DNA of 64,000 nt from Erysipelotrichaceae bacterium (GTDB lineage Bacteria; Bacillota_I; Bacilli_A; Erysipelotrichales; Erysipelotrichaceae): positions 10,137-74,136 of the forward strand of contig JAUNQE010000001.1 of NCBI GenBank assembly GCA_030536365.1. The letters are read 5' to 3'. Positions 2,762 through 31,706 of the stretch are shown in pieces; within the stretch, counting starts at the first letter, position 1; every line of letters begins with the position of its first letter. Below the pieces are notes generated by a model. The model worked only from the letters and a program-made list of their open reading frames with translations, did no database searches and was not told the origin of the DNA. Both the position numbers and the translations under genes were made by a program.

Positions 2762-2763
2762 AA

Positions 2764-6707: not shown

Positions 6708-6730
6708 GCCCCTGAAAAAGGGGCTTTTTT
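6708..6730 (+). terminator. rho-independent terminator
   Basis: GCCCCT-gaaaa-AGGGGC followed by TTTTTT. Confidence 0.8.
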
Positions 6731-7968: not shown

Positions 7969-7977
7969 GAGGACGAT

Positions 7978-8778: not shown

Positions 8779-8787
8779 GGAGGCCAT

Positions 8788-13030: not shown

Positions 13031-14278
13031 ATGAGTGAATACAATACACGCCCGTTAGAGGGCATCAAGATCGTTGAACTGGCTACATTCATTGCCGCGC
13101 CCTGCTGCGCCCGCTATCTTGCGGACCTGGGCGCCGATGTCATCAAGGTCGAACGTCCCAAAGGCGACGATCTGCGTTTTACCGCGGTCAACGAAGGACG
13201 TCCCTTCGGCGATAAGGAGGATACGAGCTTCACTCTGGAAAATACCGGCAAGCGCTGCGTCACCCTCGACACCAAGAGCGCGGCCGGCCGTGAGGCTCTT
13301 GAAAAGCTCATCGCCAACGCCGATATCTTTTTGACCAACTGGCGTCAGCCGGCTCTTGAAAGAGCGGGTCTGGATTACGATACATTAAAAGTCAAATACC
13401 CCAAACTCGTCTATGGCATCGTTTCCGGTTACGGCGAGAAGGGACCGGACAAGGATCTGCCGGGCTTTGACTTCACCGCTTACTTCGCCCATTCCGGTGT
13501 CATGGGAACCCTCTATGACAAAGGCAGCGAGCCGATGATGCCGCTGGCCGGCTTCGGTGACCATCAGGTCGCGATGAGCCTGGCTTCCGGTGTTCTGGCT
13601 GCTCTCTACCGCGCGGAAAAGACCGGCCGCGGCGATAAGGTCGTCGTCAGCCTGTACCACAGCGGTGTATGGGATGTCTCCTTATATCTGATCGCCAGCC
13701 AGTATGGCGACAAATCCACCCAGTATCCGATCCGCAAGGCGGAACTGACTAACCCCCTGAACTCTGCCAGAAGAACGTCCGATGACCGCTGGTTCATGTT
13801 CTCGGTACCGGCATATGACAAACTCTTCAATAAGTTTGTCGCGGAAGCACTGAACCGTCCGGACCTTGTCAACGATCCGCGTTTCTATCCGCAGACGAAT
13901 CTCGTCAACGGCCATCTCGATGAATGGGACGCGCTGTTCAACGCGGAAGTCGCCAAGCACGATGTCAATTACTGGATCGCCCAGATGAAGAAGGCCGACC
14001 TGCCGTTTGCCGTCTGCCAGACCTGGGATGAGATCCTGAAGGATGAGCAGGCGTTCGCCAGCGATATCTTAACGGAAGTCACCTTCCCCAACGGCAACAA
14101 ACGGACGATGGTTCGCACCCCGGTCATGTTCCAGGATACGGAACTGCCGGAATACAAACCGGCGCATTTCCTGGGCCAGGATACCCGCGAAGTCCTCGCG
14201 GAACTGGGTTACAGCGAAGCGCAGATCGACGCGATGATCGCGGCCGGTGAAGCAACAGACACTGTCCGCATCGGTTAA
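13031..14278 (+). CDS. family III CoA-transferase (CaiB/BaiF; HadA/FldA-like)
   Basis: 415 aa. PLEGIKIVELATFIAAPCCARYLADLGADVIKVE is the typical family III N-terminus. Confidence 0.85.
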   Translation: MSEYNTRPLEGIKIVELATFIAAPCCARYLADLGADVIKVERPKGDDLRFTAVNEGRPFGDKEDTSFTLENTGKRCVTLDTKSAAGREALEKLIANADIFLTNWRQPALERAGLDYDTLKVKYPKLVYGIVSGYGEKGPDKDLPGFDFTAYFAHSGVMGTLYDKGSEPMMPLAGFGDHQVAMSLASGVLAALYRAEKTGRGDKVVVSLYHSGVWDVSLYLIASQYGDKSTQYPIRKAELTNPLNSARRTSDDRWFMFSVPAYDKLFNKFVAEALNRPDLVNDPRFYPQTNLVNGHLDEWDALFNAEVAKHDVNYWIAQMKKADLPFAVCQTWDEILKDEQAFASDILTEVTFPNGNKRTMVRTPVMFQDTELPEYKPAHFLGQDTREVLAELGYSEAQIDAMIAAGEATDTVRIG

Positions 14279-14288
14279 TAGAAAAATT

Positions 14289-18405: not shown

Positions 18406-18442
18406 AAAAAGACTGTTGCTGAAGGTGACAGTCTATTCTTTC
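18406..18442 (+). terminator. probable terminator after the hydrolase gene
   Basis: GACTGT..ACAGTC hairpin followed by TATTCTTTC. A second hairpin, CCGGTTTTT-N14-AAAAACCGG, lies at 18444-18475. Confidence 0.5.
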
Positions 18443-18568: not shown

Positions 18569-18597
18569 TTGACATGTGAATTGGAAGGGGTTACATT
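18569..18597 (+). promoter_or_regulatory. sigma-70-type promoter for the sugar ABC transporter operon
   Basis: TTGACA (18569-74), a 17-nt spacer, then TACATT (18592-97). It lies about 55 nt upstream of ATG 18652. A TGTACA palindrome sits at the expected transcription start site (18597-18602). Confidence 0.5.
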
Positions 18598-18651
18598 GTA
18601 CATGACGATGGAAGCGCTTCCAAATGGAAGTCATCGTGAAAGGAGAAGAGA

Positions 18652-19791
18652 ATGAAAAAAATCTCAACGCTTATCTTTGCATTACTTCTCGTTGCATGCT
18701 TAGGTCTGACTGCCTGCAACAGCGGCACCACACCGGCTCCGTCTGCAACTCCAGAAGCATCTACCGAAACTACTGCACCGGCTGAAACCAAAGAGCCCGA
18801 ACAGAAGAGCTCCGGTTTATCCAAGGCAACTGTTCTCGACGCAAGCGAACTTCCGATCACAGGTATCGGCACAACTGTCGCAACAGAAGTCAAGGCTTCC
18901 GGCGACTACAAGATCGGCTACATCGCTAAAAACACAACAAACCCGTACATGAACGCGCAGTCCGCTGGTGTTGCCAAGGCTGGTGAAGACATGGGCTTCG
19001 AAGCGATCTGCCAGGCTCCGTCCACAGCTGACTCTGTTGAAGAACAGGTGCGTATCATGGAAAACATGATCGAACAGGGCTGCAACGCCATCATCGTTCA
19101 CTGTGCTGACTCCAACGGTATCATGCCGGGTGTCCGCGCTGCGGAAGACGCTGGTGTCATCGTTCTGACGATCGGTACTCCGGCTGCGGAAGACACATTC
19201 CTCCGTACAGGTGTTGACTACTACGAAACAGGTTACACCATCGCTACTGAAATGGCTGAAGCATTAAACGGCGAAGGCAACATCATCATCCTCGAAGGCC
19301 CGCCGGGAGCTGCTAACGCTATCGAACGTCTGAATGGTATCAACGACGCGTTCGCAAAATATCCGAACATCAAGATCGTTGCTTCCCAGACTGCTAACTT
19401 CAAGAGAACCGAAGGTATGTCCGTTACTGAAAACCTGCTCCAGGGCAACAGTGACATCCAGGGTATCATCGGTGCTAACGATGAAAGTGCTTTAGGTGCT
19501 GTTCAGGCTCTTAAGGGCGCTGGTATCGAAGGCGTTCTCGTCTCCGGTTTCGACGGCTCCGTCGACGCTTCCAACGCTGTCTTAAACGGCGATATGTTCG
19601 AAACATACAACACTGACCCGTACGGTTCCGGTTACATCGCAGCTGCTTACGCTGTCCAGTACCTGAACGACGGTACAGAGCCGGTCGGACGCTTCATCCC
19701 GTTCCCGACAGCTAACAACGACCCGCTGATCAATGCCGAAACAGTTGACGGCTACATCAACGGAAACGCTTGGTTCAACGCATTACAGTAA
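18652..19791 (+). CDS. sugar ABC transporter substrate-binding lipoprotein (PBP1 / RbsB-like, CUT2)
   Basis: 379 aa. Signal peptide with LTAC lipobox, a T/P/A/E-rich linker, then YKIGYIAKNTTNPY... typical of ribose-type binding proteins. Confidence 0.85.
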   Translation: MKKISTLIFALLLVACLGLTACNSGTTPAPSATPEASTETTAPAETKEPEQKSSGLSKATVLDASELPITGIGTTVATEVKASGDYKIGYIAKNTTNPYMNAQSAGVAKAGEDMGFEAICQAPSTADSVEEQVRIMENMIEQGCNAIIVHCADSNGIMPGVRAAEDAGVIVLTIGTPAAEDTFLRTGVDYYETGYTIATEMAEALNGEGNIIILEGPPGAANAIERLNGINDAFAKYPNIKIVASQTANFKRTEGMSVTENLLQGNSDIQGIIGANDESALGAVQALKGAGIEGVLVSGFDGSVDASNAVLNGDMFETYNTDPYGSGYIAAAYAVQYLNDGTEPVGRFIPFPTANNDPLINAETVDGYINGNAWFNALQ

Positions 19792-19813
19792 ATCAATACT
19801 GACTAGTTCTGAC

Positions 19814-19849
19814 GTAGAATGCCCTCTTCCTGCGAAGCGGGCATTCTAC
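19814..19849 (+). other. strong intra-operon stem-loop after the binding-protein gene
   Basis: GTAGAATGCCC...GGGCATTCTAC (11 bp) with an inner CTTC/GAAG extension and no U-tract. Confidence 0.6.
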
Positions 19850-19869
19850 ACATTAATATGGAGTGATAT

Positions 19870-21378
19870 ATGGGAAAAACAATTTTAGAAGCGAAACATA
19901 TCACAAAACTATTCCCGGGAATGAAAGCCTTAGACGATGTCGACTTTGACCTCCAGGAAGGAGAAGTCCATATTCTCGTAGGCGAAAACGGCGCCGGCAA
20001 GAGCACGCTTTCCAAAGTCCTTCTGGGTGCTTACAAACCGGAAGGGGGAGAGATCTTTCTTGACGGACAGCCGCTGAAACTGACCGGCACCAAAGACGCA
20101 ATTGAAAAAGGCATCGTTGCTGTATATCAGGAGAACTCACTGGTTCCTTACCTGAATTCAGCTCAGAATATATTCCTGAACCGCGAACCGAAGACAAAGC
20201 TCGGACTGCTCGATCTGAAGAAGATGAACGATGACGCGCGGGAACTGCTCAAGATCCTGAACTGCGAATACATCGATGTGACGAAAGTCGTCAGCAGCCT
20301 CAGTGTTGCCGAGCAGCAGATGGTCGAGATCGCGAAGGCTCTGTCCTTTTCGCCCCGTATCATCGTATTCGATGAGCCGACTTCCACACTTTCCGAGCGT
20401 GAAGTCGAATCGCTGTTCAAACAGATCCGCAAGCTGAAAGCGGAAGGTCTGGGCATCATCTATGTCTCGCACCGTATGCAGGAATTCCCGCTGATCGGCG
20501 ACCGTATCACCGTCCTGCGTGACGGCAAGAAGATCGGCTGTGTCGGCATCAATGAATGTTCCGACGCGGAGCTCGTCAAGATGATGGTCGGCCGTGATGT
20601 TTCCCAGGTCTATGTCCGCAACAAGACAGACTTCAGTGAGGAAGCGCTCAAAGTCGAGAACTTCTGCGACCAGGACGGCCGCGTAAAGAATGTCAGCTTC
20701 AACGTCCGCAAGGGCGAGATCGTCGGTCTGGCCGGCCTTGTCGGCGCCGGACGTACCGAGACTGCGGAAATGATCTACGGAATCCGCCCGATCGCTTCCG
20801 GCAAGATGACGGTCTTCGGCAAGGAACAGCTGCCTAAGACTCCGACCAGCGCGGTCAAGATGGGCATCGGCCTGATCTCGGAAGACCGCAAGCGTCAGGG
20901 TCTGGCACTGAACGAATCGATCGCGCAGAACAACGTCGCTGTCTCACTGCTGAAAGTCTTCCCGAACTTCTTCGTCAACAACAGTAAGATCAACCAGATC
21001 GCTGAGGAGTTCAAGGAAAAGCTGCGCATCATGACGACGAGCGTCGGCAAGAAGACGCGTTTCCTCTCCGGCGGCAACCAGCAGAAAGTCGTCCTCGCGA
21101 AATGGCTCTCCCAGGATCCGGAGATCCTGATCTTCGATGAGCCGACCCGCGGTATCGACGTTGGCGCCAAGATGGAGATCTACAATCTGATGGACCGTAT
21201 GGCTTCCGAAGGCAAGGCGATCATCATGATCTCCTCCGAACTTCCGGAGATCATCGGTATGAGCGACCGTATCTATATCATGAAGGAAGGCGAGATCACC
21301 GGTGAGCTGAAACGGGAAGACCCCGATTTCAACCAGGAAAAGATCGGTGAGCTGATGATGCTGGGAGGTGCTGAGTAA
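19870..21378 (+). CDS. sugar ABC transporter ATP-binding protein (two fused ABC domains, RbsA/MglA-like)
   Basis: 502 aa. Walker A motifs GENGAGKST and GLVGAGRTE; signature motifs LSVAEQQ and LSGGNQQK. Confidence 0.9.
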   Translation: MGKTILEAKHITKLFPGMKALDDVDFDLQEGEVHILVGENGAGKSTLSKVLLGAYKPEGGEIFLDGQPLKLTGTKDAIEKGIVAVYQENSLVPYLNSAQNIFLNREPKTKLGLLDLKKMNDDARELLKILNCEYIDVTKVVSSLSVAEQQMVEIAKALSFSPRIIVFDEPTSTLSEREVESLFKQIRKLKAEGLGIIYVSHRMQEFPLIGDRITVLRDGKKIGCVGINECSDAELVKMMVGRDVSQVYVRNKTDFSEEALKVENFCDQDGRVKNVSFNVRKGEIVGLAGLVGAGRTETAEMIYGIRPIASGKMTVFGKEQLPKTPTSAVKMGIGLISEDRKRQGLALNESIAQNNVAVSLLKVFPNFFVNNSKINQIAEEFKEKLRIMTTSVGKKTRFLSGGNQQKVVLAKWLSQDPEILIFDEPTRGIDVGAKMEIYNLMDRMASEGKAIIMISSELPEIIGMSDRIYIMKEGEITGELKREDPDFNQEKIGELMMLGGAE

Positions 21379-22328
21379 TGAAGGGCAAGTCATTCAAGGA
21401 TATTATCAGAAGCATCCCGCCGGTCGTATTCATGCTGGTGGCAATGATCGTGATCTTCGCGATCATCGAACCCCGTTATCTGTCCGCTAGAAACTTCCGG
21501 AACATCCTGCTGCAGTGTGTTCCGCTGATGATCATGGCATTCGCCCAGACGATCGTTATCCTTACCGAAGGTATCGATATGTCATTGAATGCGGTGGTCA
21601 ATATCGTAACTGTCCTGACTGTCTGGCTCGCGCTCAAGGGCGTACCGCTTCCGGTCGGCATGCTGATCAGCGTGCTGGTCGCGATCGTGATCGGCGTCGT
21701 CAAGGGCTTCTTCGTATCGAAGTTCTCCTTACCGCCGTTCATCGTCTCCTATGGTATGCAGAACATCGTCAACTCGATCGCTCTCCTGCTTACCGGCGGC
21801 GCTTCGATCTACTTCGCGAGCGAGCTCTACCGGGCTTTCACCAAGACGGTCTTCATCGTTCCCAATAACGTCTGGGTCGCGGCCCTGATGTTCGTGCTCA
21901 CCTATCTGATGCTGAAACGGACCAAGCTCGGCGCCAATATCCGCGCCCTGGGCGGCAACCCGGAATCCCTGACTTTAGCCGGTGTCAATCCCGGAAGATC
22001 CCTGATCAAGGCCTATGCCTTTGCCGGCTTCCTGACCGGTGTCGCCGGTCTGATGATGCTCTGCCGTGTCGAATCCGGACAGCCGATCGTCGCCAACGGC
22101 CTCGAATTCCAGTCTGTCGCGGCAACAGTTCTCGGCGGAACTTCCTTAAGACATGGTAAAGGCAATGTGACCGGTACGATCTTAGGCGTTCTGCTGATCC
22201 AGGTCATTCAGAACGGTCTGAATATCTGCGGTGTTCCGGCGATCTACCAGAGCGTATCCACAGGCGGTATCGTTCTGGCAGCGATCATCGTCAACGCGCT
22301 GATCACCAGCCGCAAGGCGAAAGCATAG
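21378..22328 (+). CDS. sugar ABC transporter permease (RbsC/AraH family)
   Basis: 316 aa polytopic membrane protein. The start overlaps the ATPase stop. Confidence 0.85.
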   Translation: MKGKSFKDIIRSIPPVVFMLVAMIVIFAIIEPRYLSARNFRNILLQCVPLMIMAFAQTIVILTEGIDMSLNAVVNIVTVLTVWLALKGVPLPVGMLISVLVAIVIGVVKGFFVSKFSLPPFIVSYGMQNIVNSIALLLTGGASIYFASELYRAFTKTVFIVPNNVWVAALMFVLTYLMLKRTKLGANIRALGGNPESLTLAGVNPGRSLIKAYAFAGFLTGVAGLMMLCRVESGQPIVANGLEFQSVAATVLGGTSLRHGKGNVTGTILGVLLIQVIQNGLNICGVPAIYQSVSTGGIVLAAIIVNALITSRKAKA

Positions 22329-22342
22329 AAAGGGGAAAGATC

Positions 22343-23296
22343 ATGGAAAAATTCAAACAGGCAATCAAAGAATCGACCGCATTTTACAGCCTGATCGGAC
22401 TTGTCGTCCTGGTCATCCTGTCCTCGATCATCGCCCCGAACTTCCGTACCATCAACAATATGATCACGATCTTCCGTCAGGCTTCGCTGCTGCTGATCCT
22501 CTCATCGGGTCTTACAGCGGTACTGCTGACAGGCACGATGGACCTTTCCGTCGGCGCGACAGCAGGTCTTGTCGGTTGCGTCGTTGCCCAGCTCATCAAG
22601 AGCAGCATCTCCGTTCCGGTCGCGGCTCTGATCGGTATCCTGATCGGTGTCGTCATCGGTCTGATCAACGGTACGCTGGCCGGTATCCTGCCGGGCTTCA
22701 TCGCGACCTACGGCACCAACTGGGTCATTGCCGGTCTTGGTATCGCGATCATGCGCGGACAGGTCATTTATGATCTGCCGCCGTCCTTCACCTTCCTGGG
22801 TGTAGGCTATGTCGGTCCGATCCCGATCCTGGTCATCTTCGCTTTGATCGTCGTGGCGATCCTGTATGTCCTGCTGACAAAGACAACGCTGGGACGCAGG
22901 ATCTACCAGTACGGTTCGAACCCGGTCGCGGCGGAATACTCCGCTGTTCCGACAAGACGCATCGTATTATCCGCATTCGTTATCTGCTCCGTCTGCGCGG
23001 CTTTCGCCGGCATGCTGATGACAGCACGTCTGAATGCGGCGGATGCGGCAATGGGTGACACCTACGGTCTGCAGACGGTTGCGGCTGCTGTTATCGGCGG
23101 CACATCCCAGAAAGGCGGCGAAGGCGGCGTCTTAGGTACGATCGCCGGCGCGCTGATCCTGACGATCGTCGTCAACGTCATGAACCTTACGGGAATTCCG
23201 GCACAGGCACAGGGCCTGATCATCGGTTCCGTCATCGTTATCATGGTCCTGATCGATACTGTTACCAGAAAACGTCAGGAAAACAAAATCGATTAA
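22343..23296 (+). CDS. sugar ABC transporter permease (RbsC/AraH family), second subunit
   Basis: 317 aa polytopic membrane protein, paralogous to the preceding permease. Confidence 0.85.
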   Translation: MEKFKQAIKESTAFYSLIGLVVLVILSSIIAPNFRTINNMITIFRQASLLLILSSGLTAVLLTGTMDLSVGATAGLVGCVVAQLIKSSISVPVAALIGILIGVVIGLINGTLAGILPGFIATYGTNWVIAGLGIAIMRGQVIYDLPPSFTFLGVGYVGPIPILVIFALIVVAILYVLLTKTTLGRRIYQYGSNPVAAEYSAVPTRRIVLSAFVICSVCAAFAGMLMTARLNAADAAMGDTYGLQTVAAAVIGGTSQKGGEGGVLGTIAGALILTIVVNVMNLTGIPAQAQGLIIGSVIVIMVLIDTVTRKRQENKID

Positions 23297-23325
23297 CAAA
23301 GAGTTAATAAAGGAGGAAAAAACTC

Positions 23326-24207
23326 ATGAACTATAAGATCACACCACTGAACACAGGCTTCATCCCGACAAAACCGCTCGAGTACCACTACCATTTCTCC
23401 TGCAAACCTTACTTAAAGGATGTCAAAGATGAACCGGTACCGCTTCCGGACTTCACATTCCTGCTCGAAGGCGAAGACGGAACTCTGATCATGGTCGATA
23501 CAGGTATGGCCTGGACAGACCGCGCCAATAAATACCATCACAAGGGATCCTGGCAGAGAGAAGGTATCGATGATATCGAATCCAAGCTGAAATCCGTAGG
23601 CCATACACCGGCTGAGATCGATATCGTCCTCTTCACACATCTGCACTGGGACCATGTCTTCTATCTTGAAAAATTCACCAAGGCCCGTTTCATCGTCAAC
23701 AAGAAGGAATGGGAATACGCTCACAATCCGGTTCCGCTCCACTTCAAGAGCTATGAACGTCCGATCATCGCCAAAGACGGCGACGTCGTCGTTGCACCGT
23801 TCGATCAGGAAGGCGTTAAGGAACGCTTCGAGTTCGTTGAAGGCGAATGCGAGATCGTCCCCGGCATCAGCGTATACGAAAGCTTCGGTCACTGCCCGGG
23901 TCATCAGACCATCGTTGTTCAGACAAAGAACGGCCCGTACTACTGCGTGGGCGACTCCGTCTTCGTAATGGGCAACATCGATACCACTCCGGAGGTTGAA
24001 GCGAACCTGCATTACGATATCCTTCCTCCGGGACGTTACGTTGATATCGTCGCTTCCTGGCTGACGATCCGTGACACACTGCGCCGCTGCAAAGAAGCAG
24101 GCGTTGATCCGCATAAGCACCTGCTGCTCGCGCATGACTACGGACTTTCCGATTACTGCGACGAGTACGAAAAGGAAAACGGCAAACTGCCGGTCTTCGG
24201 AGAATAA
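23326..24207 (+). CDS. MBL-fold hydrolase, AiiA-like lactonase family (copy 2)
   Basis: 293 aa; AGGAGG RBS. HLHWDH motif, MVDTGM, ANKYHH and WEYA.NP.PL..KSYE are shared with copy 1 (1949-2761). Confidence 0.85.
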   Translation: MNYKITPLNTGFIPTKPLEYHYHFSCKPYLKDVKDEPVPLPDFTFLLEGEDGTLIMVDTGMAWTDRANKYHHKGSWQREGIDDIESKLKSVGHTPAEIDIVLFTHLHWDHVFYLEKFTKARFIVNKKEWEYAHNPVPLHFKSYERPIIAKDGDVVVAPFDQEGVKERFEFVEGECEIVPGISVYESFGHCPGHQTIVVQTKNGPYYCVGDSVFVMGNIDTTPEVEANLHYDILPPGRYVDIVASWLTIRDTLRRCKEAGVDPHKHLLLAHDYGLSDYCDEYEKENGKLPVFGE

Positions 24208-24220
24208 AATCAATACTGTG

Positions 24221-24255
24221 GTATCATGAAGACCTGTGAATGGTCTTCATGATAC
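24221..24255 (+). other. perfect 14-bp stem-loop between MBL copy 2 and UPF0261 copy 2
   Basis: GTATCATGAAGACC-tgtgaat-GGTCTTCATGATAC followed only by TTT. It could be a partial terminator or a processing/stability element. Confidence 0.6.
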
Positions 24256-24273
24256 TTTATAATGGAGTTTAAT

Positions 24274-25536
24274 ATGAAAACGATAGCGATCATTGAAAGC
24301 TGTGATACGAAATACAGAGAAGCGCAGTACATTAAGGAGCTGGTGGAAAAAGAGGGGATGACGGGTCTTGTCATCGACGTCGCCACCGGTCCTTATCCTT
24401 CCTACAATTTTGATGTATCGCGCGAAGAGATCGTCCGGGTGAAGGGCAAGGAATGGAAGGAGCTCGAACCCAGAAGCAAAGGCGAAAAGATCGAGTTCAT
24501 GCGCGAAGCCGTTACCGCCTATGTCCGCAAGCTCTATGACGAAGGCAGGATCGACGGTGTCGTCTCGATCGGCGGCCTCCAGAATACGGTCATGGCGACT
24601 TCCGCCATGCGCAGCCTGCCGATCGGTTTCCCGAAAGTCATGGCTACAACGATCGCCTGCGGCAGAAAGACCTTTGATCCCGTCGTCGGCGAAAAGGATG
24701 TTGTCGTGATCCCGGCGATCTGCGATTTCACCGGCCTTAACCTCGTCACGAGACAGGTCATTGCCAACGCGACTGCCTGCTGTATCGGCATGGTCAAGAC
24801 TGCCGGACATGTCCTGAAAAAGGGAGACAGACCGGTCGTCGGCGTCACCCTGATGGGGATCACCAATACCGGCGCCTGCGCCGCGATCGATGAACTGGAA
24901 CGCTGCGGTATCGAAGCCCTGGGTTTCCACGCCACCGGTGTCGGCGGACCGACGATGGAGCAGATGGCGGAAGACGGACTGATCGACGGTATCCTGGATC
25001 TGACGGTCCATGAGATCACCGAGGAACATTTCGGAGGCGGTTTCTCCTATGGCGAGAACGCCAAGATCCGCATCCGCAAGAGCGTAGCTGCCAAAGTCCC
25101 GCTGGTGGTCAGTGTCGGCGGCATCGATTTCATTGATTTCGCGCCGTCGGAATTCCCACCGCGCATGGAAGAACGCAAATACATGATGCATAACGCCACG
25201 ATGGCCCACATCAAACTGCTGCCGGATGAAGTTGAGGAAGCTACCCGCAGCTACCGTGAACGTCTGGCGGCGATCGATTATCCGGTCAAAGTACTATTAC
25301 CGACAGACGGTATGCGTCATAATACCCGTAAAGGCGAGGAACTCTACTGGCCGGAAGTGGATGAAGCCATCCTCTCCGGCATCCGCAGCATCGAGAATCC
25401 CAATCTTGAGTTCATCACGATCGAAGGAAATCTCGATACCAGGGAGTGGGGGATCCAGGCCGCTCACTATATGATCGATGAATTAGTGGAAAAAGGCGTG
25501 ATCCGCAAGGAAGATCACAACTACGAGGAGGAATAA
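24274..25536 (+). CDS. UPF0261 / Tm-1-like ATP-binding domain protein (copy 2)
   Basis: 420 aa from ATG 24274 (GGAG 7 nt upstream); ATG 24262 is an alternative start. MKTIAIIESCDTK.., GFPKV, VGEKD and FHATGVGG parallel copy 1. Confidence 0.8.
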   Translation: MKTIAIIESCDTKYREAQYIKELVEKEGMTGLVIDVATGPYPSYNFDVSREEIVRVKGKEWKELEPRSKGEKIEFMREAVTAYVRKLYDEGRIDGVVSIGGLQNTVMATSAMRSLPIGFPKVMATTIACGRKTFDPVVGEKDVVVIPAICDFTGLNLVTRQVIANATACCIGMVKTAGHVLKKGDRPVVGVTLMGITNTGACAAIDELERCGIEALGFHATGVGGPTMEQMAEDGLIDGILDLTVHEITEEHFGGGFSYGENAKIRIRKSVAAKVPLVVSVGGIDFIDFAPSEFPPRMEERKYMMHNATMAHIKLLPDEVEEATRSYRERLAAIDYPVKVLLPTDGMRHNTRKGEELYWPEVDEAILSGIRSIENPNLEFITIEGNLDTREWGIQAAHYMIDELVEKGVIRKEDHNYEEE

Positions 25537-25538
25537 AC

Positions 25539-26144
25539 ATGGAAGAAAGACTTATCCCGATCTGCGAACAGCTGGTCGAAGCCTGCAAAAGAGCGTATGC
25601 CCGCGGCATTCAGATGAACAGCGGCGGCAACGTCAGCGCCCGTGTTCCCGGTGAGGAACTGATGATCGTCAAGGCCAGCGGCAGCTCGTTTGCCGACAGC
25701 ACCGTTGACGGTTTCGTCATTACCGATTTTGACGGCAACAAGGTCGCCGGCGAAGGCAAGCCGACCAGAGAAGCATTACTGCACGGTCTGATCTACCGCT
25801 TATGCCCGAATGTCAACGCGGTCGTTCATACACACGCACCCTACAGCATCGCCTATTCTGTAGCGAAGAAGCCGCTTGTCCGTGTCACCTGGCATTCCCA
25901 GCTGAAGATGAACGCGGACCTGCCGACACTGGATGTACCGGCACCGATGGTCCGTCCGGAATACTTCTACATGGTCGAGGAAGTTCTCAAGGAAAATCCG
26001 GAATTACCGGGATTCCTGCTCGTCGATCACGGACTGGTCGCCATGGGAAAAGATCCGATCAATGCGGAACATACAGCTGAGCTGATCGAAGAGACAGCGA
26101 TGGTCACCATCCTGCGCGCAGCTGTCACCAAGATGGGTTTATAA
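25539..26144 (+). CDS. class II aldolase/adducin-family protein (copy 2)
   Basis: 201 aa; GGNVS, PTREALLH, VHTHA, DHGLVAM and AELIEETA are shared with copy 1. Confidence 0.85.
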   Translation: MEERLIPICEQLVEACKRAYARGIQMNSGGNVSARVPGEELMIVKASGSSFADSTVDGFVITDFDGNKVAGEGKPTREALLHGLIYRLCPNVNAVVHTHAPYSIAYSVAKKPLVRVTWHSQLKMNADLPTLDVPAPMVRPEYFYMVEEVLKENPELPGFLLVDHGLVAMGKDPINAEHTAELIEETAMVTILRAAVTKMGL

Positions 26145-26182
26145 GGCTTATAAATAAGGAACAAATATAGTAAAATTAATAT

Positions 26183-26947
26183 ATGCGTATCACAATGCAG
26201 GAAAACCCGGAAGGACTGTTCCAGAAGAACGCTCTTTCCGAACAAGTTATCGATATCCTGATGGGATGGATCATGGAGGGGAAGCTTCAGATGGGCGACC
26301 GTCTGAACGCCAATGACCTCGCCAAGACCCTCGGTGTCAGCCGTATGCCGGTAAGAGAAGCTCTGCTCGACCTTGAAAAACGGGGTCTCGCGGAGTCGAT
26401 CCCGTATGTAGGCATGCGCCTGGTCAAGCTTTCCGAAGAGGATATCCGGCAGATCTACATGGTAAGAAGGGCGTTGGAACCGATCGCGGCCCGTTTCGCC
26501 TGCCATAATGTGACGGATAAGGATATCGCGGAGCTTGAGGACATACACCAGGAATACGAACGTCTGATATGGGATCCTGCATCCAGTCCGATCGACACAT
26601 ATCAGCAGAACCGCCGTTTCCATTTTGCCATCTACAAGCTTGGCAAGCTGGACCGCGTGAACGCTCTGATCGAACAGGTCTGGGACAACCTGGCTTTCTT
26701 CAAACTCATCTTCGGGCACAGCCTGCTCGATACCGATGAGTCAAAACGCAGGATCGTCCAGGTGCACCGCAATTACCTTGATGCCCTGATCGCCAGGGAC
26801 GAAGACAGGATCTTTGATCTGTTCGCGGACAATCTGAGCCGCCGTCTTTCCGACCTGCCGTATTATGTCGATGCCTATACGCACGATCAGAAAAAACCAA
26901 GATCAGCCGGCGAGCCTGCCGGTCTGACCTTGCAGGAAAAGATGTAA
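26183..26947 (+). CDS. GntR-family transcriptional regulator (FadR/FCD-type)
   Basis: 254 aa; wHTH (LNANDLAKTLGVSRMPVREALLDLEKRGL) plus an FCD-like domain. No SD; the AT-rich upstream region has TATAGT at 26166-71. Confidence 0.8.
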   Translation: MRITMQENPEGLFQKNALSEQVIDILMGWIMEGKLQMGDRLNANDLAKTLGVSRMPVREALLDLEKRGLAESIPYVGMRLVKLSEEDIRQIYMVRRALEPIAARFACHNVTDKDIAELEDIHQEYERLIWDPASSPIDTYQQNRRFHFAIYKLGKLDRVNALIEQVWDNLAFFKLIFGHSLLDTDESKRRIVQVHRNYLDALIARDEDRIFDLFADNLSRRLSDLPYYVDAYTHDQKKPRSAGEPAGLTLQEKM

Positions 26948-27013
26948 ACGGTCATTGCGAAACATGACCATTCTTCGTAGGAGCAGTCTTTTATAGACCA
27001 GGAGGGAAAAACC

Positions 27014-27457
27014 ATGAAGATCGCTATCGGATGTGATCCAAACGCCGAAGAGGCAAAACAGCAGCTCATCGAATTCATCAACAAGAAGAATCTTGGCGAC
27101 GTTACCGATTTTGGTTCCGAAGATGTTATCTATCAGCATACCGCTGCAGCTGTAGCGGAAGCAGTCGCCAGAGGCGAATATGACCGCGGTGTCTTATTAT
27201 GCGGTACCGGCATCGGTGTCTCGATCGCTGCCAATAAGGTCAAGGGCGCATACGCCGCTCTGATCTCCGACGTATACTCCGCAAAAAGAGCACGTCTCAG
27301 CAACGACGCCAACATCGCCTGCTTAGGCGCTTTCACGACCGGCAACAAGCTCAGAGAAGAGCTCATCGAAGCCTTCCTGACCAACGAGTTCGTTCCGGGC
27401 TGCGCTTCCCAGCCGAAAGTTGATGCTTACCACGAATACGACGAAAACCGCAAATAA
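27014..27457 (+). CDS. rpiB: RpiB/LacA/LacB-family sugar-phosphate isomerase
   Basis: 147 aa. MKIAIGCD.., LLCGTGIGVSIAANK (catalytic Cys region). AGGAGGG RBS. Confidence 0.85.
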   Translation: MKIAIGCDPNAEEAKQQLIEFINKKNLGDVTDFGSEDVIYQHTAAAVAEAVARGEYDRGVLLCGTGIGVSIAANKVKGAYAALISDVYSAKRARLSNDANIACLGAFTTGNKLREELIEAFLTNEFVPGCASQPKVDAYHEYDENRK

Positions 27458-27458
27458 G

Positions 27459-28238
27459 ATGGCAAAGAAACTTTACTTCGGCAGCAATCTCAAGATGTAT
27501 AAGAACACTGCCGATACAGTCGCTTATCTCAAGGCGCTCGAAGAGAAGACGAAGGATATCCCGAACATCCAGATGTTCATCATTCCTTCCTATACGACTC
27601 TTGAAAGAGCCAGCGAAGCAGTCGACCACAACAACATCCTGATCGGTGCCCAGAACATGTGCTGGGAGGATCAGGGACAGTTCACCGGCGAGATCTCCCC
27701 GCTGATGTTGAAGGAACTGGGTCTTGACCTCGTCATGATCGGCCATTCCGAAAGAAGACATGTCTTCGGAGAGACCGATGTCGAGGAGAATAAAAAAGTC
27801 CTCGCTTCCCTGAAGCACGGATTCAAGACGCTGTTATGCATCGGCGAGACAGCGGAAGAGAAGAACTTCGGGATCAGTGCCGAGGTCCTGCGCACACAGC
27901 TGAAAGTCGGTCTCCACGGCGTCGAGGAGAAAGACCTCGACAAGGTCTGGGTCGCCTATGAACCGGTCTGGTCGATCGGTGTCAACGGCACACCGGCCAA
28001 AGCCGACTATGCGGAAGAGATGCATAAGGAGATCAAGAAGTGCCTGAATGAGCTCTTCGGCAAAGCTTCGAAGAACATTCCGGTCCTTTACGGCGGCAGC
28101 GTCAATCCGACCAACGCGGATGAGCTGATCGTTCAGAAGCATATTGACGGTCTGTTCACCGGCAGAGCTGCCTGGGATGCAGAGAAATTCGATCTTCTGA
28201 TCCGTCAGGCGCTGAAAGCCTACGCCAAGAAAGATTAA
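27459..28238 (+). CDS. triose-phosphate-isomerase-family protein (non-canonical paralog)
   Basis: 259 aa from ATG 27459, 1 nt after the rpiB stop. Motifs SNLKMY (canonical GNWKMN), IGHSERR, AYEPVWSIGVNGTPA (canonical AYEPVWAIGTGKTA) and LYGGSV. Confidence 0.75.
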   Translation: MAKKLYFGSNLKMYKNTADTVAYLKALEEKTKDIPNIQMFIIPSYTTLERASEAVDHNNILIGAQNMCWEDQGQFTGEISPLMLKELGLDLVMIGHSERRHVFGETDVEENKKVLASLKHGFKTLLCIGETAEEKNFGISAEVLRTQLKVGLHGVEEKDLDKVWVAYEPVWSIGVNGTPAKADYAEEMHKEIKKCLNELFGKASKNIPVLYGGSVNPTNADELIVQKHIDGLFTGRAAWDAEKFDLLIRQALKAYAKKD

Positions 28239-28251
28239 AGAAAAAAGGCAG

Positions 28252-28298
28252 AACCGGGGAAAAGGTGACGTGAAAACGTTTCCTTACCCCGGTTTTTT
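28252..28298 (+). terminator. rho-independent terminator
   Basis: AACCGGGGAAAAGG...CCTTACCCCGGTT followed by TTTTTT. Confidence 0.75.
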
Positions 28299-28343
28299 CT
28301 ATGCAGGGAAAGCCGCTGTTTTTTCGAAAAATTCATAATAATA

Positions 28344-30344
28344 ATGCGTGACCGCTTCCGAAGTTTTGTATATACTAATGACATGTCTGATTATAAACTG
28401 GGTTTCGGGCTGTTTATTGGCCTGTATTTTATTGATTACATCTTCGGCATGGTGTCTTTCGGGCAGATCGAGCTGATCGCGGTCGCCCGCATGCTGGCAA
28501 TCTCTTTTTCGGTAGCGATGATCTTTTCTTTCCTGATCCGGAAGCTTCCGGAAAAGGCCAAGCTGCTGCTGAGCTTCGTACTGCTTCTGCTGTTTGCCTT
28601 CTACGCATTCCTGGAGATGCAGTTCAATAATTTCCTGAACGGTTACTACAGCTTCCAGAACGTCGCTGACGGCGGATTCCGGGTCGGTGTCTTTGCCTGG
28701 TATTTCATCAAGACGGCAAAGCCGCAGTATTTCCTGACCTTCCTGGTCCCGCTGCTGTTCCTTCTGTTCAACTTTAAAAACAAAGGCGCTGGCAAAGTGT
28801 CACTGAAGACCTTCGTCTTCTCGCTGATCGTCTTCGCCGTCGTGATCTTCACGCTGCCTTTTGGCTCACATAATTATGAAAATGCTGTCCGCAACCAGGA
28901 TAACTTTGATTTCATCGTGCGTGAGACCGGTGTGAACACCTTCTTCTTTGAAGATCTGCGCGCTGTGTTTGTCGGCAAGGATGAGACACTCGTGATCGAG
29001 GAAAGCACGGATCCTGAAGAGACTGCGGAAGCAACCCCGGAAACGACCGCGACACCGGAGACCGTCATTGAGAAGGATCCGCTGATCCGTGACTTCGATG
29101 ACAGCCGCTGGAAAGCGGATATGGAAAAGGAGACCGATGAGACCGTCAAGTCGATCGACCAGTATCTGCTGAGCCGCAAGATCGAGGAACGCAACGAGAA
29201 GACCGGGATCTACGAGGGCTATAACTTCATCTACTTCCTGGTCGAATCGATGGACTATGTCGGCATCGATCCGGTGCTGACACCGACGATCTATAAGATG
29301 ATGACCGAAGGCTACCGGTTCCCCAACCATTACACGCCTGTCTTCAGCTGCGGCACCGGCGATTCAGAGCTCGTCTCCATGACTTCCATGATGCCGTACG
29401 GTTCTGCCTGCACGGTCTACAGCGCGACACCGAACGATCTGAACAACTCGATGGCCGCCTTATTCAAGCGCGCCGGTTACGATACCTTCTCCTTCCACAA
29501 CTGGGACGACCAGTTCTATAACCGCACCGAACTGCATGAATCCTACGGCATCGATGTCTATAAGGATATCGAAGACCTCGACATCCCGATCGTACAGGGC
29601 TGGCAGTCTGACAATGTTTTAATGGAACAGGCGATCCCGGATTTCATCCATTCGGATAAATTCTTCACCTTCATCGTCACCTCGACCATGCACTGGCCGT
29701 ATGACGAAGGTTCCTATTACGGTAACTACTATCTGGAAGAGATCAATAAGGTCCATCCGGATTACCCGATCGAACTGAAGCGTTTCATCAGCAAGACCAT
29801 GGAATTCGACAAGTCGCTGGCGACTCTGCTGGCAGCGCTCGAGGAAGAGGGCAAGCTCGACAATACCGTGATCTGCTTCTGGCCGGATCATCACCCCTTC
29901 AATCTCGATTACGGCGTGATCCGTTCCTATACCCAGAACGTCGACCGTTACGGGACCCACGGTTTCTATAAATCCCCGCTGATCCTCTACAATGCCGCCA
30001 CCCCGAGCGAGACGGTGGAGGATGTCTGCTCGACCTTCGACCATGTGCCGACGATCGCCAATCTCTTCGGTCTGAATTATGATCCGCGTCTTTATATGGG
30101 ATCCGATATCTTCGGCGGAAACACGCGTGTCATGTTTGCCAACGGTGACTGGATCAGCGACGAAGGCATCTATACGGTCTCCGACGGCACGTTCAACGCC
30201 TTTGAGGGAAAGAGCCTGAGCGAGGGCGAGATCGAAAAGAATTCGACGGAAGTCCGCAACCTGATCCGTGTCGGCCGGGCGATCGTGGATACCGACTATT
30301 TCCATCTGCGCAACTACATCACCGATCCGGTCGAAAAAGAATAA
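28344..30344 (+). CDS. LTA synthase / phosphoglycerol-transferase-family sulfatase (LtaS-like), polytopic N-terminus
   Basis: 666 aa. N-terminal TM helices, an acidic T/P/E linker, then a sulfatase-type domain (SMDYVG..., WPDHHP). The start is uncertain: ATG 28344 (no SD) or ATG 28383 (a TATACT box lies 6 nt upstream). Confidence 0.75.
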   Translation: MRDRFRSFVYTNDMSDYKLGFGLFIGLYFIDYIFGMVSFGQIELIAVARMLAISFSVAMIFSFLIRKLPEKAKLLLSFVLLLLFAFYAFLEMQFNNFLNGYYSFQNVADGGFRVGVFAWYFIKTAKPQYFLTFLVPLLFLLFNFKNKGAGKVSLKTFVFSLIVFAVVIFTLPFGSHNYENAVRNQDNFDFIVRETGVNTFFFEDLRAVFVGKDETLVIEESTDPEETAEATPETTATPETVIEKDPLIRDFDDSRWKADMEKETDETVKSIDQYLLSRKIEERNEKTGIYEGYNFIYFLVESMDYVGIDPVLTPTIYKMMTEGYRFPNHYTPVFSCGTGDSELVSMTSMMPYGSACTVYSATPNDLNNSMAALFKRAGYDTFSFHNWDDQFYNRTELHESYGIDVYKDIEDLDIPIVQGWQSDNVLMEQAIPDFIHSDKFFTFIVTSTMHWPYDEGSYYGNYYLEEINKVHPDYPIELKRFISKTMEFDKSLATLLAALEEEGKLDNTVICFWPDHHPFNLDYGVIRSYTQNVDRYGTHGFYKSPLILYNAATPSETVEDVCSTFDHVPTIANLFGLNYDPRLYMGSDIFGGNTRVMFANGDWISDEGIYTVSDGTFNAFEGKSLSEGEIEKNSTEVRNLIRVGRAIVDTDYFHLRNYITDPVEKE

Positions 30345-30405: not shown

Positions 30406-31518
30406 TTAGTCGGGTCGTTTTCCCATCCGGCGGTATTTGCCGGGGTCATAAAGCGGAACGAGAGACAGTGCTGCGTCGTATTCGGCACCGCCGCTTGCGA
30501 TCGTGTAATGCGAGCCGGTGATCGCGTATTCCGGACGGACATACCCCAGTGCCGTGCTGTGATCTGTTCCGGGAGTGAGCGAGCCGCTGGTGACGTAACC
30601 GATCTCTTTACCGTCGCTGAAGATCGGGTCGCCTGTTTTCATTTCAACGATCCCGTCGACCCTGAACCAGACCAGGGTCTTGGTGACACCGTTCCGGATC
30701 ACTTCCTTAAGCGCCTGCTGTCCGTTGAAGTCATTGGTCTTATTGAGCTTGACGGTCCAGCCGATACCGGCTTCAAACGGGTTTATGGTCTTGTTGTGTT
30801 CATTTCCGACAAGGATCATTCCGGCTTCCTGCCGCAGGCTTTCAAGCGCGAGCTGTCCGCAGGGCACGATCCCTTCTTCTTTTCCCGCTTCCATCAAGGT
30901 CTCCCACATTCTCTTCCCGAATCCGGAATCGAAATGCAGCTCGTAGCCGAATTCTCCGGTAAAGCCGATCCGCGCGATCGTGCAGTCGATCCCGCCGACC
31001 ACGCCTTTTTTGAAGGTATAGAATTTGAATCCGAGATCGACATTCGTCAGTTTCTCCAGGATCTTTCGCGAAAGCGGCCCCTGCAGCGCGAGCGTTGTCC
31101 ACTGATCGGTGATGTTTTGCAGTTCAATTTCGAATGCCGCCGCATTCTTTTCAAGCCAGGCATAATCGGATTCATCTCCGCTGATGAACATATATTCGTT
31201 CTCGCCGGTGTGCCAGACGGTACCGTCATCGATCATATTGCCTTTTTCGTCCGGGATCGCCGTGTAACGGATCCCGCCGATACCGAGAGAGGTGAAGTCG
31301 TTCGTGAAAACTTTCTGGATGAAAGCGAATGCGCCCGGTCCTTTGATCGTAGCCACTGCCATGTAATCGAGGTCACACAGGCTCGCTCTGGTTCTGGTGC
31401 CAATATACTCTTCTGCGTGTCCGGTCGCGTACTCTGTGGGAAGCCAGTAGCCGAATAATTCCGCCATCCTGGCTCCATAGCTGATTCCGACATCATAAAA
31501 TGGTGTCTTTTTTGACAT
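30406..31518 (-). CDS. aminomethyltransferase (GcvT)-family folate-binding protein, stand-alone
   Basis: 370 aa from the ATG preceded by GGAGG (8-nt spacing). The ORF-track start at 31548 is 10 codons further upstream. MSKKTPFYD..., GPLSRKILEKL and FTGE.GYE are typical of the GcvT family. Confidence 0.75.
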   Translation of the reverse strand: MSKKTPFYDVGISYGARMAELFGYWLPTEYATGHAEEYIGTRTRASLCDLDYMAVATIKGPGAFAFIQKVFTNDFTSLGIGGIRYTAIPDEKGNMIDDGTVWHTGENEYMFISGDESDYAWLEKNAAAFEIELQNITDQWTTLALQGPLSRKILEKLTNVDLGFKFYTFKKGVVGGIDCTIARIGFTGEFGYELHFDSGFGKRMWETLMEAGKEEGIVPCGQLALESLRQEAGMILVGNEHNKTINPFEAGIGWTVKLNKTNDFNGQQALKEVIRNGVTKTLVWFRVDGIVEMKTGDPIFSDGKEIGYVTSGSLTPGTDHSTALGYVRPEYAITGSHYTIASGGAEYDAALSLVPLYDPGKYRRMGKRPD

Positions 31519-31706
31519 GGTAAGATCCTCCGTTTCCATTATGTTCACTGCATGGATGAACTGATCTCATTTTTGTATCGGCCGGCTGGAAAACAATTGA
31601 CGAATGCGGGGAAATCATAAACTATTTTACGCATCCGCCCCTTTTGTGCAGTACGGTTTTTCTTTGCGTCTTTCTGCTGAATAAGAAACAGCATTATAAT
31701 GTAAGT

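Follow-up and report, generated by a model that had tools for sequence, protein, structure and literature searches.

Two old copies of a hydrolase, UPF0261 and aldolase-family gene cassette in an Erysipelotrichaceae genome probably serve an undescribed breakdown route for a sugar-derived lactone or keto-acid

Three genes coding for a metallo-beta-lactamase (MBL)-fold hydrolase, a UPF0261 protein and a class II aldolase-family protein occur together twice in a stretch of 64,000 nucleotides of an Erysipelotrichaceae genome (assembly GCA_030536365.1, contig JAUNQE010000001.1, positions 10,137 to 74,136 of the forward strand; hereafter the window), and the evidence supports the view that this trio is a real conserved cassette used twice in this genome. 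By analogy with characterised enzymes, the cassette probably encodes an undescribed breakdown route for a sugar-derived lactone or keto-acid. We favour, with some confidence, a more precise reading, in which two old copies of the cassette each supply a hydrolase, a kinase and a C-C lyase or decarboxylase, are fed by importers of their own, and would share further steps carried out by a RuBisCO-like protein (RLP) and by isomerases of tetrulose phosphates. The genes on which this argument turns are distributed over two loci, locus 1 (3-6726) and locus 2 (18569-28315):

1319-1930, + strand, locus 1: class II aldolase-family protein, copy 1 (Ald1; Pfam Aldolase_II, 120 bits)
1949-2761, + strand, locus 1: MBL-fold hydrolase, copy 1 (MBL1; Pfam Lactamase_B)
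2764-4002, + strand, locus 1: UPF0261 protein, copy 1 (UPF1), predicted kinase (Pfam PF06792 and PF23189)
4014-5285, + strand, locus 1: RuBisCO-like protein, form IV (Pfam RuBisCO_large and RuBisCO_large_N)
23326-24207, + strand, locus 2: MBL-fold hydrolase, copy 2 (MBL2; Pfam Lactamase_B)
24274-25536, + strand, locus 2: UPF0261 protein, copy 2 (UPF2), predicted kinase (Pfam)
25539-26144, + strand, locus 2: class II aldolase-family protein, copy 2 (Ald2; Pfam Aldolase_II)
27014-27457, + strand, locus 2: RpiB-family sugar-phosphate isomerase, DerI-like candidate (Pfam LacAB_rpiB)
27459-28238, + strand, locus 2: paralog of triose-phosphate isomerase (TIM) with motifs of the L-erythrulose-1-phosphate isomerase type (PDB sequence match and motifs)

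The three gene pairs are paralogs, as an earlier sequence-only reading of the window had proposed, and the open reading frames (ORFs) lie where it had placed them. Pfam detects Lactamase_B in 1949-2761 and 23326-24207, the N- and C-terminal domains of UPF0261 in 2764-4002 and 24262/24274-25536, and Aldolase_II in 1319-1930 and 25539-26144. BLASTP aligns the MBL pair with 43 % identity over 254 aa (E 6e-67), the UPF0261 pair with 35 % over 398 aa (E 1e-85) and the aldolase-family pair with 48 % over 178 aa (E 7e-58), similarities that are far beyond chance in all three cases. The identity of about one third that had been estimated by eye is thus right for UPF0261 and somewhat low for the other two pairs. 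All the shared motifs that had been listed were recovered in the pairwise alignments: HLHWDH, ANKYHH and KSYE in the MBL pair; SxDTK, GFPKV, VGEKD and FHA(N/T)GVGG in the UPF0261 pair; and PTRE..LH, VHTH, HGLVAM and AELIEETA in the aldolase-family pair. For UPF2, a start at 24274 is preferred to that of the longest ORF at 24262, as a GGAG stands 6 nt ahead of it and the alignment of homologues begins at this position. The names lactonase and aldolase given to these proteins in the same reading can be kept as family labels, and neither reaches a curated equivalog threshold.

The trio is linked in many other genomes. Diverse relatives of MBL2 were aligned, 80 loci with 10-kb flanks were taken from contigs of one genome per species, and their ORFs were scored against the window proteins (these loci are cited by our handles, L001 and so on). 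Of the 43 loci with full flanks, 39 have a UPF0261 gene and 35 an aldolase-family gene no more than 7 kb away from the MBL gene, and among the 60 loci whose flanks reach at least 3 kb, 48 have both. The surveyed loci represent Bacillota, Spirochaetota, Actinomycetota, Acidobacteriota, Chloroflexota, Desulfobacterota and Alphaproteobacteria, and show at least four gene orders (MBL-UPF-Ald, Ald-MBL-UPF, UPF-MBL-Ald and divergent arrangements), with MBL and UPF0261 as the most tightly adjacent pair. Linkage kept through so much rearrangement argues for a functional coupling of the three proteins. Two of them are even joined in nature: P0209, a single ORF of 628 aa at positions 2407-4293 of L084, fuses a UPF0261 protein to an aldolase-family part that is 63 % identical to Ald2, stands in the order KdgT, MBL, fusion, GntR, and belongs to a 90 % cluster of 12 member sequences. 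Two cassettes are also present in at least three other genomes: a sister metagenome-assembled genome (MAG) of the one studied here, a Sphaerochaeta MAG (L029, L038) and a Desulfobacterales MAG (L049, L050). The proposal of a conserved and functionally coupled cassette, first drawn from the recurrence of the trio in one genome, is hence borne out by a linkage of 80-90 % over seven phyla, in shuffled order, by the fusion and by the repeats in other genomes.

Judged by sequence identity, the window holds one copy from each of two distinct orthologue lineages, type 1 (1319-4002) and type 2 (23326-26144), and all three genes co-vary by type across the surveyed loci. Type-2 loci (L001-L018, L022, L035) are 49-99 % identical to MBL2, 53-99 % to UPF2 and 46-100 % to Ald2, versus 38-49 %, 30-39 % and 45-50 % to the MBL, UPF0261 and aldolase-family proteins of copy 1; type-1 loci (L032, L037-L043) show the opposite pattern and are nearer to copy 1. 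The window proteins are 99 % identical to those of contig JAFRLM010000007.1 (L001), from an Erysipelotrichaceae MAG of goat jejunum, and in the sister MAG, which comes from sheep ileum, the two loci stand together on contig JAFWII010000029.1 (L002 and L041). Further away, MBL2 is 76 % identical to its orthologue in Faecalicatena contorta, and UPF2 has orthologues with 61-74 % identity in the cultured gut bacteria Roseburia hominis, Clostridium scindens and Faecalicatena fissicatena; the UPF2 homologues listed are all type-2 orthologues, with at least 61 % identity. Because each copy is nearer to orthologues in other genera than to its paralog in the same genome, the divergence of the two must be old, in agreement with the earlier suggestion of an old duplication or a separate acquisition instead of a recent repeat.

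The genes that accompany the trio point to a common continuation of the two pathways. Within 7 kb of the MBL gene, counted over the 80 loci with no minimum flank, an RLP is found in 24, an RpiB in 21, a TIM in 18 and a GntR regulator in 35. The second triad had been described as being without an RLP, which is correct for the window, where the sole RLP is that of 4014-5285 and locus 2 has none; as a property of the lineage it does not stand, since the type-2 loci of Faecalicatena contorta (L003), Coprococcus (L008) and Roseburia hominis (L081) have one, at the end of the order solute-binding protein-ABC-permease-permease-MBL-UPF-Ald-GntR-RLP. The window RLP, which stands in a type-1 locus, has 62-66 % identity with RLPs from type-2 loci, whereas the triad proteins share only 34-49 % between types. 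RpiB and TIM are added in the type-2 loci L010-L012, L015-L018, L021, L022 and L035, and in L037, a locus of a further Erysipelotrichaceae MAG, the RLP, RpiB (93 % identical to that of the window) and TIM (72 %) come behind a type-1 triad. In the genome studied here this accessory set is split, with the RLP at locus 1 and the TIM, RpiB and GntR genes at locus 2. The better conservation of the accessory enzymes across types suggests that they act on a common downstream intermediate and that the triads are the substrate-specific part; and since the accessory set is shared and split over the two loci, the two triads most likely feed two related substrates into one shared route. That these substrates are different is plausible, given that the binding proteins of the two loci differ (about 100 bits, versus 818 for self) and that the types of transporters differ too.

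Several loci depart from this basic composition. The Chloroflexota loci L051, L055 and L056 have two UPF0261 genes each, which in L051 and L056 flank a DeoC/LacD-type aldolase and a gene resembling uroporphyrinogen decarboxylase (URO-D), with a group-A RLP (defined below) in both; a regulator with a UTRA domain is present in L051, L055, L057 and L059. These double-UPF0261 loci are a different elaboration of the same core. In Paracoccaceae and relatives (L062-L080), a HAD-IIA hydrolase and an aldolase-family protein resembling the N-terminal part of RhaD come after the MBL gene, with an FGGY kinase in addition in L070, L075 and L076, and the UPF0261-aldolase pair lies some kb off, past an ABC importer. 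The top UPF0261 match, P0121 (670 aa), was considered as a fusion with an MBL and rejected: it has no MBL part and carries instead an internal tandem duplication of ~250 residues (near 181-353 and 431-603), which is probably an artefact of assembly or gene calling.

The UPF0261 proteins are predicted, by analogy with the one characterised member of the family, to be ATP-dependent kinases. Both have the two domains of the family (PF06792 at the N-terminus and PF23189 at the C-terminus, with 155 and 201 bits in UPF1 and 178 and 180 bits in UPF2, for a cut-off of 27), and UPF1 is above the cut-off of NCBIfam NF002674 (339, cut-off 335). MarK (Saro_1862) transfers a phosphoryl group from ATP, giving ADP, in what was described as the first activity for the UPF0261 family, and its residue 16 corresponds to Lys20 of Tm-1, an ATP (alpha-phosphate) contact (PMC12624787). 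The lysine of the DTK motif of UPF2 aligns with residue 16 of MarK E16K (D14-T15-K16), such that the lysine that makes MarK E16K active is naturally present in UPF2, and UPF1 carries the same motif as ESLDTK. MarK and the cassette proteins share the two-domain architecture; they differ in that the match is of only 125 bits and that MarK acts on aromatics in an acetovanillone carboxylase operon, whereas the context of the cassette is of carbohydrate type.

The other two members of the triad keep the metal sites of their families and fail the tests for specific members. In the MBL-fold proteins, the ligands H105, H107, D109 and H110 (HxHxDH), H189, D210 and H270 are invariant in 22 diverse members of the subfamily. 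Among characterised proteins they are closest to lactonases (AiiA, 4-pyridoxolactonase and dihydrocoumarin hydrolase), though their own scores stay far below the equivalog cut-offs. A quorum-quenching N-acyl-homoserine lactonase can be dismissed, as the AiiA model gives 92 bits (MBL1) and 71 bits (MBL2) for a cut-off of 375, AttM and YtnP give less, and the genomic context does not fit. The aldolase-family proteins keep the E/H/H/H metal site, where the Glu of PTRE corresponds to D76 of AraD, the HTH to H95/H97 and the His of DHG to H171, and have Gln or Ser at the positions of Asp120 of AraD, Tyr113 of FucA and the Glu of the MtnB type. We tried four assignments for them and rejected all: OtnC (NF043034, 80 and 78 bits, cut-off 250); AraD/UlaF (TIGR00760, 70-80 versus 389, Asp120 replaced by Gln, and a length of 201 aa that ends before the region of Tyr229); MtnB (TIGR03328, 87 and 76 versus 137, the Glu position of the MtnB-like 2irp being Ser); and FucA (below the NCBIfam cut-off, with the catalytic residue not kept).

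A PDB sequence search gives MtnW (2oek, 272 bits) as the nearest solved structure of the RLP at 4014-5285. It keeps the equivalents of Lys175, of Lys201/Asp203/Glu204 (in the motif IKDDE, Lys201 being the carbamylated residue) and of His294, and in this protein, as in all group-A cassette RLPs, an Asn replaces the general base of MtnW, Lys98 (RuBisCO position 123). Read by eye against RuBisCO motifs, the glycine motifs of the P1 phosphate site also seem to be kept and the equivalents of H327 and K334 to be absent. This pattern of active-site residues excludes the assignments to MtnW and to a carboxylase and suits a mono-phosphorylated 2-keto substrate, which suggests that the substrate of the RLP is a monophosphate keto compound. 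The scores concur: the MtnW model NF007095 gives 342 for a cut-off of 409, and the OiaX model NF042437 gives 198 bits for the window RLP and 237 for that of L052, for a cut-off of 700. A carboxylating RuBisCO was rejected on residue 295, which is Ser in the window RLP and Arg in no cassette RLP. Across the survey, all cassette RLPs of Bacillota and Acidobacteriota and some of those of Chloroflexota belong to group A (LxGND..ST, KPC), whereas Desulfobacterota, other Chloroflexota and one Acetobacteraceae locus have group-B RLPs (GEGAF, VKPNIG), which score best with the OiaX model (237). By these motifs, two distinct RLP clades have been recruited to the same neighbourhood.

The TIM paralog is probably an isomerase of the L-erythrulose-1-phosphate (LerI) type. 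Its best PDB match is LerI (11ef, 218 bits, versus 199 for the TIM of T. maritima), with which it has in common the motifs IGxNG and GR(A/S)AW, where canonical TIM has IGTG and GGASL; we know of no curated LerI model. The RpiB paralog, in turn, cannot be called a DerI equivalog, since the D-erythrulose-4-phosphate isomerase model NF051858 gives 124 bits for a cut-off of 240.

From these elements the following route can be proposed. A sugar-derived lactone or keto-acid would be imported and then ring-opened or hydrolysed by the MBL enzyme. UPF0261 would phosphorylate the hydroxyl beside the carbonyl and give an intermediate of the 1-phospho-2-keto type. The aldolase-family protein would next break a C-C bond, in a decarboxylation of a beta-keto acid like that of 3OtnC (which we take to be a member of the class II aldolase family) or in a retro-aldol reaction. 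The RLP would enolise, isomerise or decarboxylate the mono-phosphorylated keto intermediate, and the LerI-like TIM and the RpiB paralog would convert a tetrulose phosphate into erythrose-4-phosphate. In its most specific form, the proposal is of an undescribed pathway of gut commensals that leads from an ascorbate-family compound to erythrose-4-phosphate without an oxidoreductase, with UPF0261 as the kinase, a new reaction for the RLP with Asn at position 123, and two front ends joined to one back end; as such it is tentative, and we offer it as a possibility and not as an expectation.

Several clues bear on the substrate. Depending on the locus, the transporters are CUT2-type ABC importers, KdgT (L004-L007, L084), GntP-like permeases (L038-L043) or tripartite ATP-independent periplasmic (TRAP) systems (L024-L031); the usual cargo of the latter three is carboxylates. 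The regulators of the cassette are of the GntR/FCD type. An UlaG equivalog stands ahead of the triad in the window, L032, L037 and L041; its BLAST cluster also includes UlaG-like ORFs from L052 and L065. Near the MBL-UPF pair there is a UlaE-type 3-epimerase in L032 (Solobacterium, 353 bits, cut-off 200), with a cluster-mate in L052 (a deltaproteobacterium), and the same two loci have AraD/UlaF-type 4-epimerases beside the pair (395 versus 389, and 375 versus 257). No conserved oxidoreductase was found in the surveyed loci, where MDR-type dehydrogenase, aldehyde:ferredoxin oxidoreductase and URO-D-like genes are present in few; the substrate should therefore already be at the level of a keto-acid or aci-reductone. 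The leading substrate class, possible although somewhat doubtful, is the ascorbate family (L-ascorbate, dehydroascorbate/2,3-diketogulonate, erythroascorbate) or related 3-keto-aldonate lactones. Tungsten-type aldehyde:ferredoxin oxidoreductase genes neighbour the cassette in L014, L018, L031, L045, L048, L064 and L068, a hint that some variants produce an aldehyde, and a URO-D family protein similar to MtaA/CmuA is encoded in or beside the cassette in L010 and L016.

The gene families place the cassette among lactone and acid-sugar catabolic operons: it resembles the Ula, Otn and apionate systems in logic and fails the curated membership tests of their enzymes. Like the Ula/Sgb-Yia pathway for L-ascorbate of enterobacteria, whose members are the lactonase UlaG, the decarboxylase UlaD, the epimerases UlaE and UlaF and the kinase LyxK, it would pair an MBL-fold lactonase acting on a sugar lactone with a member of the class II aldolase family and would decarboxylate a phosphorylated 3-keto-acid. 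The TRAP transporters of some loci also seem to us reminiscent of YiaMNO. In contrast to Ula, whose importer is a phosphotransferase system (PTS), the importers of the cassette are ABC, KdgT, GntP-like or TRAP; no UlaD gene (of the orotidine-5'-monophosphate decarboxylase family) was seen; the kinase is UPF0261 and not FGGY; the MBL is AiiA-like and not UlaG-like; and an RLP and LerI-like/RpiB isomerases are added. The tetronate pathway (for L-threonate and D-erythronate) follows the same logic of a kinase of keto sugar acids and then an aldolase-family decarboxylase, which yields a ketose phosphate; in vitro, 3OtnK and the decarboxylase 3OtnC convert D-gluconate, oxidised by Ltn3D, to ribulose 5-phosphate (Ru5P) (PMC12994016). 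It differs in that the kinase families are unrelated (UPF0261 versus the DUF1537 of 3OtnK), the OtnC model gives only 78-80 bits versus 250, and the cassette has a hydrolase in the place of the dehydrogenase and the OtnI isomerase. A full-text literature search on UPF0261/COG5441/PF06792/Tm-1-like returned only MarK, plant Tm-1 and incidental mentions; the literature searches yielded neither a description of the gene cluster nor a paper in which UPF0261, the present MBL subfamily or the cassette RLPs are linked in a pathway for carbohydrates.

A number of observations weigh against the reading of two front ends on a shared RLP and isomerase route. The survey loci were picked by MBL similarity, so that linkage is measured from the MBL side only, and L013 and L014 have the MBL, RpiB, TIM and aldolase-family genes without UPF0261. 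Many loci, that of Roseburia hominis among them, are without RpiB and TIM, and many others without an RLP, which means that the six-enzyme scheme is not obligatory. At the level of the enzymes, neither the RLP nor any of the triad proteins receives an equivalog-level assignment from NCBIfam, and every step of the pathway is therefore drawn by analogy. The TIM paralog is also above the cut-off of the canonical triose-phosphate isomerase equivalog NF000722 (303 versus 293), which makes the LerI assignment probable and not certain; the RpiB paralog is just above the cut-off of the generic RpiB subfamily (138 versus 135), and the two could be ordinary isomerases acting on dihydroxyacetone phosphate and Ru5P. 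UlaG is itself a lactonase, which puts the role of MBL1 in locus 1 in question. Finally, in the absence of a conserved oxidoreductase the candidate substrates are limited to the keto-acid/aci-reductone level.

Could the cassette be a variant of a pathway that is already described? It is unlikely, although conceivable, that it degrades apiose or apionate, with UPF0261 in the place of OiaK as the kinase of 3-oxo-isoapionate, a decarboxylation of 3-oxo-isoapionate-4-phosphate to L-erythrulose-1-phosphate by either the RLP or the aldolase-family protein, and LerI/DerI-like enzymes giving erythrose-4-phosphate. An RLP, a LerI-like TIM, an RpiB, a kinase, a lactonase-like enzyme and an ABC importer reportedly make up the outline of the apionate route. 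The oxidative D-apionate pathway (OiaK, the RLP OiaX/OiaT, LerI, DerI) has an RLP that acts on a mono-phosphorylated keto acid, followed by isomerases of L-erythrulose-1-phosphate and D-erythrulose-4-phosphate, as is predicted for the cassette, and the ApnO-OiaK-OiaX series has been named (PMC12994016). The LerI motifs of the TIM paralog fit this idea, as does the fact that OiaX is the best-scoring model for group-B RLPs. So does the kinship of the binding protein with furanose binders, including 5ibq of Rhizobium etli (114 bits), presumably an apiose binder. However, the 198-237 bits obtained with the OiaX model are far from its cut-off of 700, the window RLP is nearer to MtnW, and the kinase is of another family. 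The route also needs two oxidations, and the 80 loci revealed no apiose dehydrogenase, no apionate oxidoisomerase and no further oxidoreductase that is conserved; the UlaG, UlaE and UlaF neighbours would be left unexplained.

A reading of the aldolase-family protein and the RLP as paralogs of the pair MtnB/MtnW, i.e., a dehydratase and an enolase that would process a 5-substituted pentose in the manner of methionine salvage, with UPF0261 as the sugar kinase, seems improbable to us. The closest solved relatives do come from that pathway, MtnW 2oek for the RLP and Aquifex aq_1979 (2irp, 83 bits), which we take to be MtnB-like, for Ald2, and the NCBIfam models of MtnW and MtnB are among the best matches. 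Yet catalytic residues and genomic context differ: Lys98 is Asn in every group-A RLP, Ser occupies the position of the catalytic Glu of MtnB, and the scores fall short (342 versus 409 for MtnW, 76-87 versus 137 for MtnB). No relative of MtnK, MtnA, MtnX or MtnD was recognised among the neighbour families examined, and acid-sugar transporters, GntR/FCD regulators and a LerI-like TIM do not fit sulfur salvage. A review of methionine salvage contained nothing relevant to the cassette.

Equally little credence can be given to a scheme in which UPF0261 and the MBL are an activation/de-activation pair, like the kinase/phosphatase pair MarK/AcvF of acetovanillone catabolism, such that a phosphate placed on an enolic hydroxyl would drive a C-C step that is unfavourable without it, and the MBL would then remove this phosphate instead of opening a lactone. 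MBL-fold enzymes include phosphoesterases, and the adjacency of MBL and UPF0261 is the tightest of the trio. The sole characterised UPF0261 enzyme does work in a sequence of kinase, carboxylase and phosphatase on an acidic hydroxyl (PMC12624787). On the other hand, the nearest characterised relatives of the MBL are lactonases, the downstream sugar-phosphate isomerases imply that the phosphate is retained, and the neighbour families examined included no recognisable carboxylase subunits; acvCDEF-type carboxylase/phosphatase genes are absent from the window loci and none was recognised among these families in the 80 loci. That the trio is a set of uncoupled neighbours, and its second occurrence a coincidence of common families, is extremely improbable even if MBL and class II aldolase are both large and common families, because it would have to account for the 80-90 % linkage in seven phyla despite the shuffled order, for the natural fusion, for the co-variation of the three genes between lineages and for the compact cassette island of Roseburia hominis (L081), which is flanked by unrelated genes.

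The remaining features of the window that belong to the two loci are:

3-452, + strand, locus 1: UlaG-type (L-ascorbate-6-phosphate lactonase) 3' end, cut by the window edge (NCBIfam NF008688)
465-1268, + strand, locus 1: PF00756 esterase, between UlaG and the triad (Pfam)
5371-6681, + strand, locus 1: fusion of a DUF6198/YitT-like membrane domain and a cytidylate-kinase-like domain (Pfam), possibly the last gene of the locus
6706-6726, + strand, locus 1: terminator-like hairpin and T-run, end of the locus
18569-18597, + strand, locus 2: promoter-like site TTGACA-17-TACATT, ahead of the locus
18652-19791, + strand, locus 2: CUT2-type ABC solute-binding protein (Pfam Peripla_BP_4)
19870-21378, + strand, locus 2: ABC ATPase with two ATP-binding domains (Pfam)
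21378-22328 and 22343-23296, + strand, locus 2: two BPD_transp_2 permeases (Pfam)
26183-26947, + strand, locus 2: GntR/FCD regulator (Pfam)
28290-28315, + strand, locus 2: terminator-like hairpin and T-run, end of the locus

Each locus looks like a single transcription unit. In locus 1, no terminator-like site was found on the + strand before that of 6706-6726. The UlaG fragment consists of the last 149 residues, is 99 % identical to the full-length gene of L041, and gives 272 bits on positions 207-355 of NF008688, for which the full-length L041 copy reaches 590 (cut-off 306); by way of this copy, the gene at 3-452 can be called a UlaG equivalog. Homologues of the PF00756 esterase occupy the same position in the type-1 loci L032, L037 and L041. 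In the place of the 5371-6681 gene (436 aa), L041 has an ORF of 451 aa after the RLP and L037 one of 427 aa, with no NCBIfam match, after the TIM, both being compared by size and position only. In L041 and L037, a CUT2 ABC importer, whose binding protein occupies 2561-3703 in L041, a divergent SorC-type regulator and an FGGY kinase precede UlaG, and locus 1 would thus be attached to an importer too, just outside the window. The fusion to a sugar importer that had been presented as peculiar to the second copy therefore holds for locus 2, which follows a CUT2 importer, and not as a contrast, for the window starts inside UlaG and the sister genome has an importer at locus 1 as well.

The neighbours of the triad in locus 2 are as they had been described, with the CUT2 importer (18652-23296) ahead and the GntR/FCD regulator, RpiB and TIM paralog behind. 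A terminator-like hairpin at 18410-18434 sets the locus apart from an upstream peptidase gene, and the TIM gene more likely starts at the ATG of 27459, one base past the RpiB stop, than at the TTG of 27420. The nearest PDB relatives of the solute-binding protein (18652-19791) are ribose-type and furanose-type binders with at most 153 bits, generic matches that are not diagnostic of the substrate. The 66-nt gap between MBL2 and UPF2 is mostly taken up by a 15-bp hairpin at 24220-24256 (GGTATCATGAAGACC, a 7-nt loop, GGTCTTCATGATACT), perfect save for one G-U pair; the intergenic RNA folds with -24.2 kcal/mol (z = -5.5) and there is no T-run behind the hairpin. No good match to a further copy of the palindrome, as expected of an operator, was found elsewhere in the window. 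The hairpin may be an element of processing, stability or attenuation within the operon, or the palindrome of a regulator. Directly past the terminator of locus 2 lies a sulfatase-family, LTA-synthase-like membrane protein of 666 aa (28344-30344), and, on the opposite strand to it, a glycine-cleavage T protein (30406-31548); no more pathway genes were found in the 28-64 kb part of the window. Between the loci (6826-15887) lies a 2-hydroxyacyl-CoA dehydratase system with an acyl-CoA dehydrogenase, the beta and alpha subunits of an electron-transfer flavoprotein, an activator ATPase, two HGD-D subunits, a family III CoA-transferase and an AMP-forming ligase, after which come a GntR/FCD regulator and an S15 peptidase. 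It is a fermentation cluster for an amino acid or 2-hydroxy acid and seems unrelated to the cassette.

For the widespread UPF0261 family just one activity has been demonstrated, that of an aromatic kinase reported in 2025, and only a handful of reactions have been assigned to RuBisCO-like proteins. The cassette ties both to an MBL hydrolase, an aldolase-family protein and tetrulose-phosphate isomerases, and so offers a concrete way to new functions; if the reading is true, it would give UPF0261 its first sugar-related function. The split of the accessory genes predicts that the two loci of this genome depend on each other. The cassette is present in prominent gut commensals of the genera Faecalicatena, Blautia and Extibacter and in Roseburia hominis and Clostridium scindens; its occurrence in cultured commensals of the human gut makes the proposal directly testable. 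Should the substrate be related to ascorbate, the cassette would explain how gut anaerobes that do not use a PTS consume vitamin C or one of its breakdown products.

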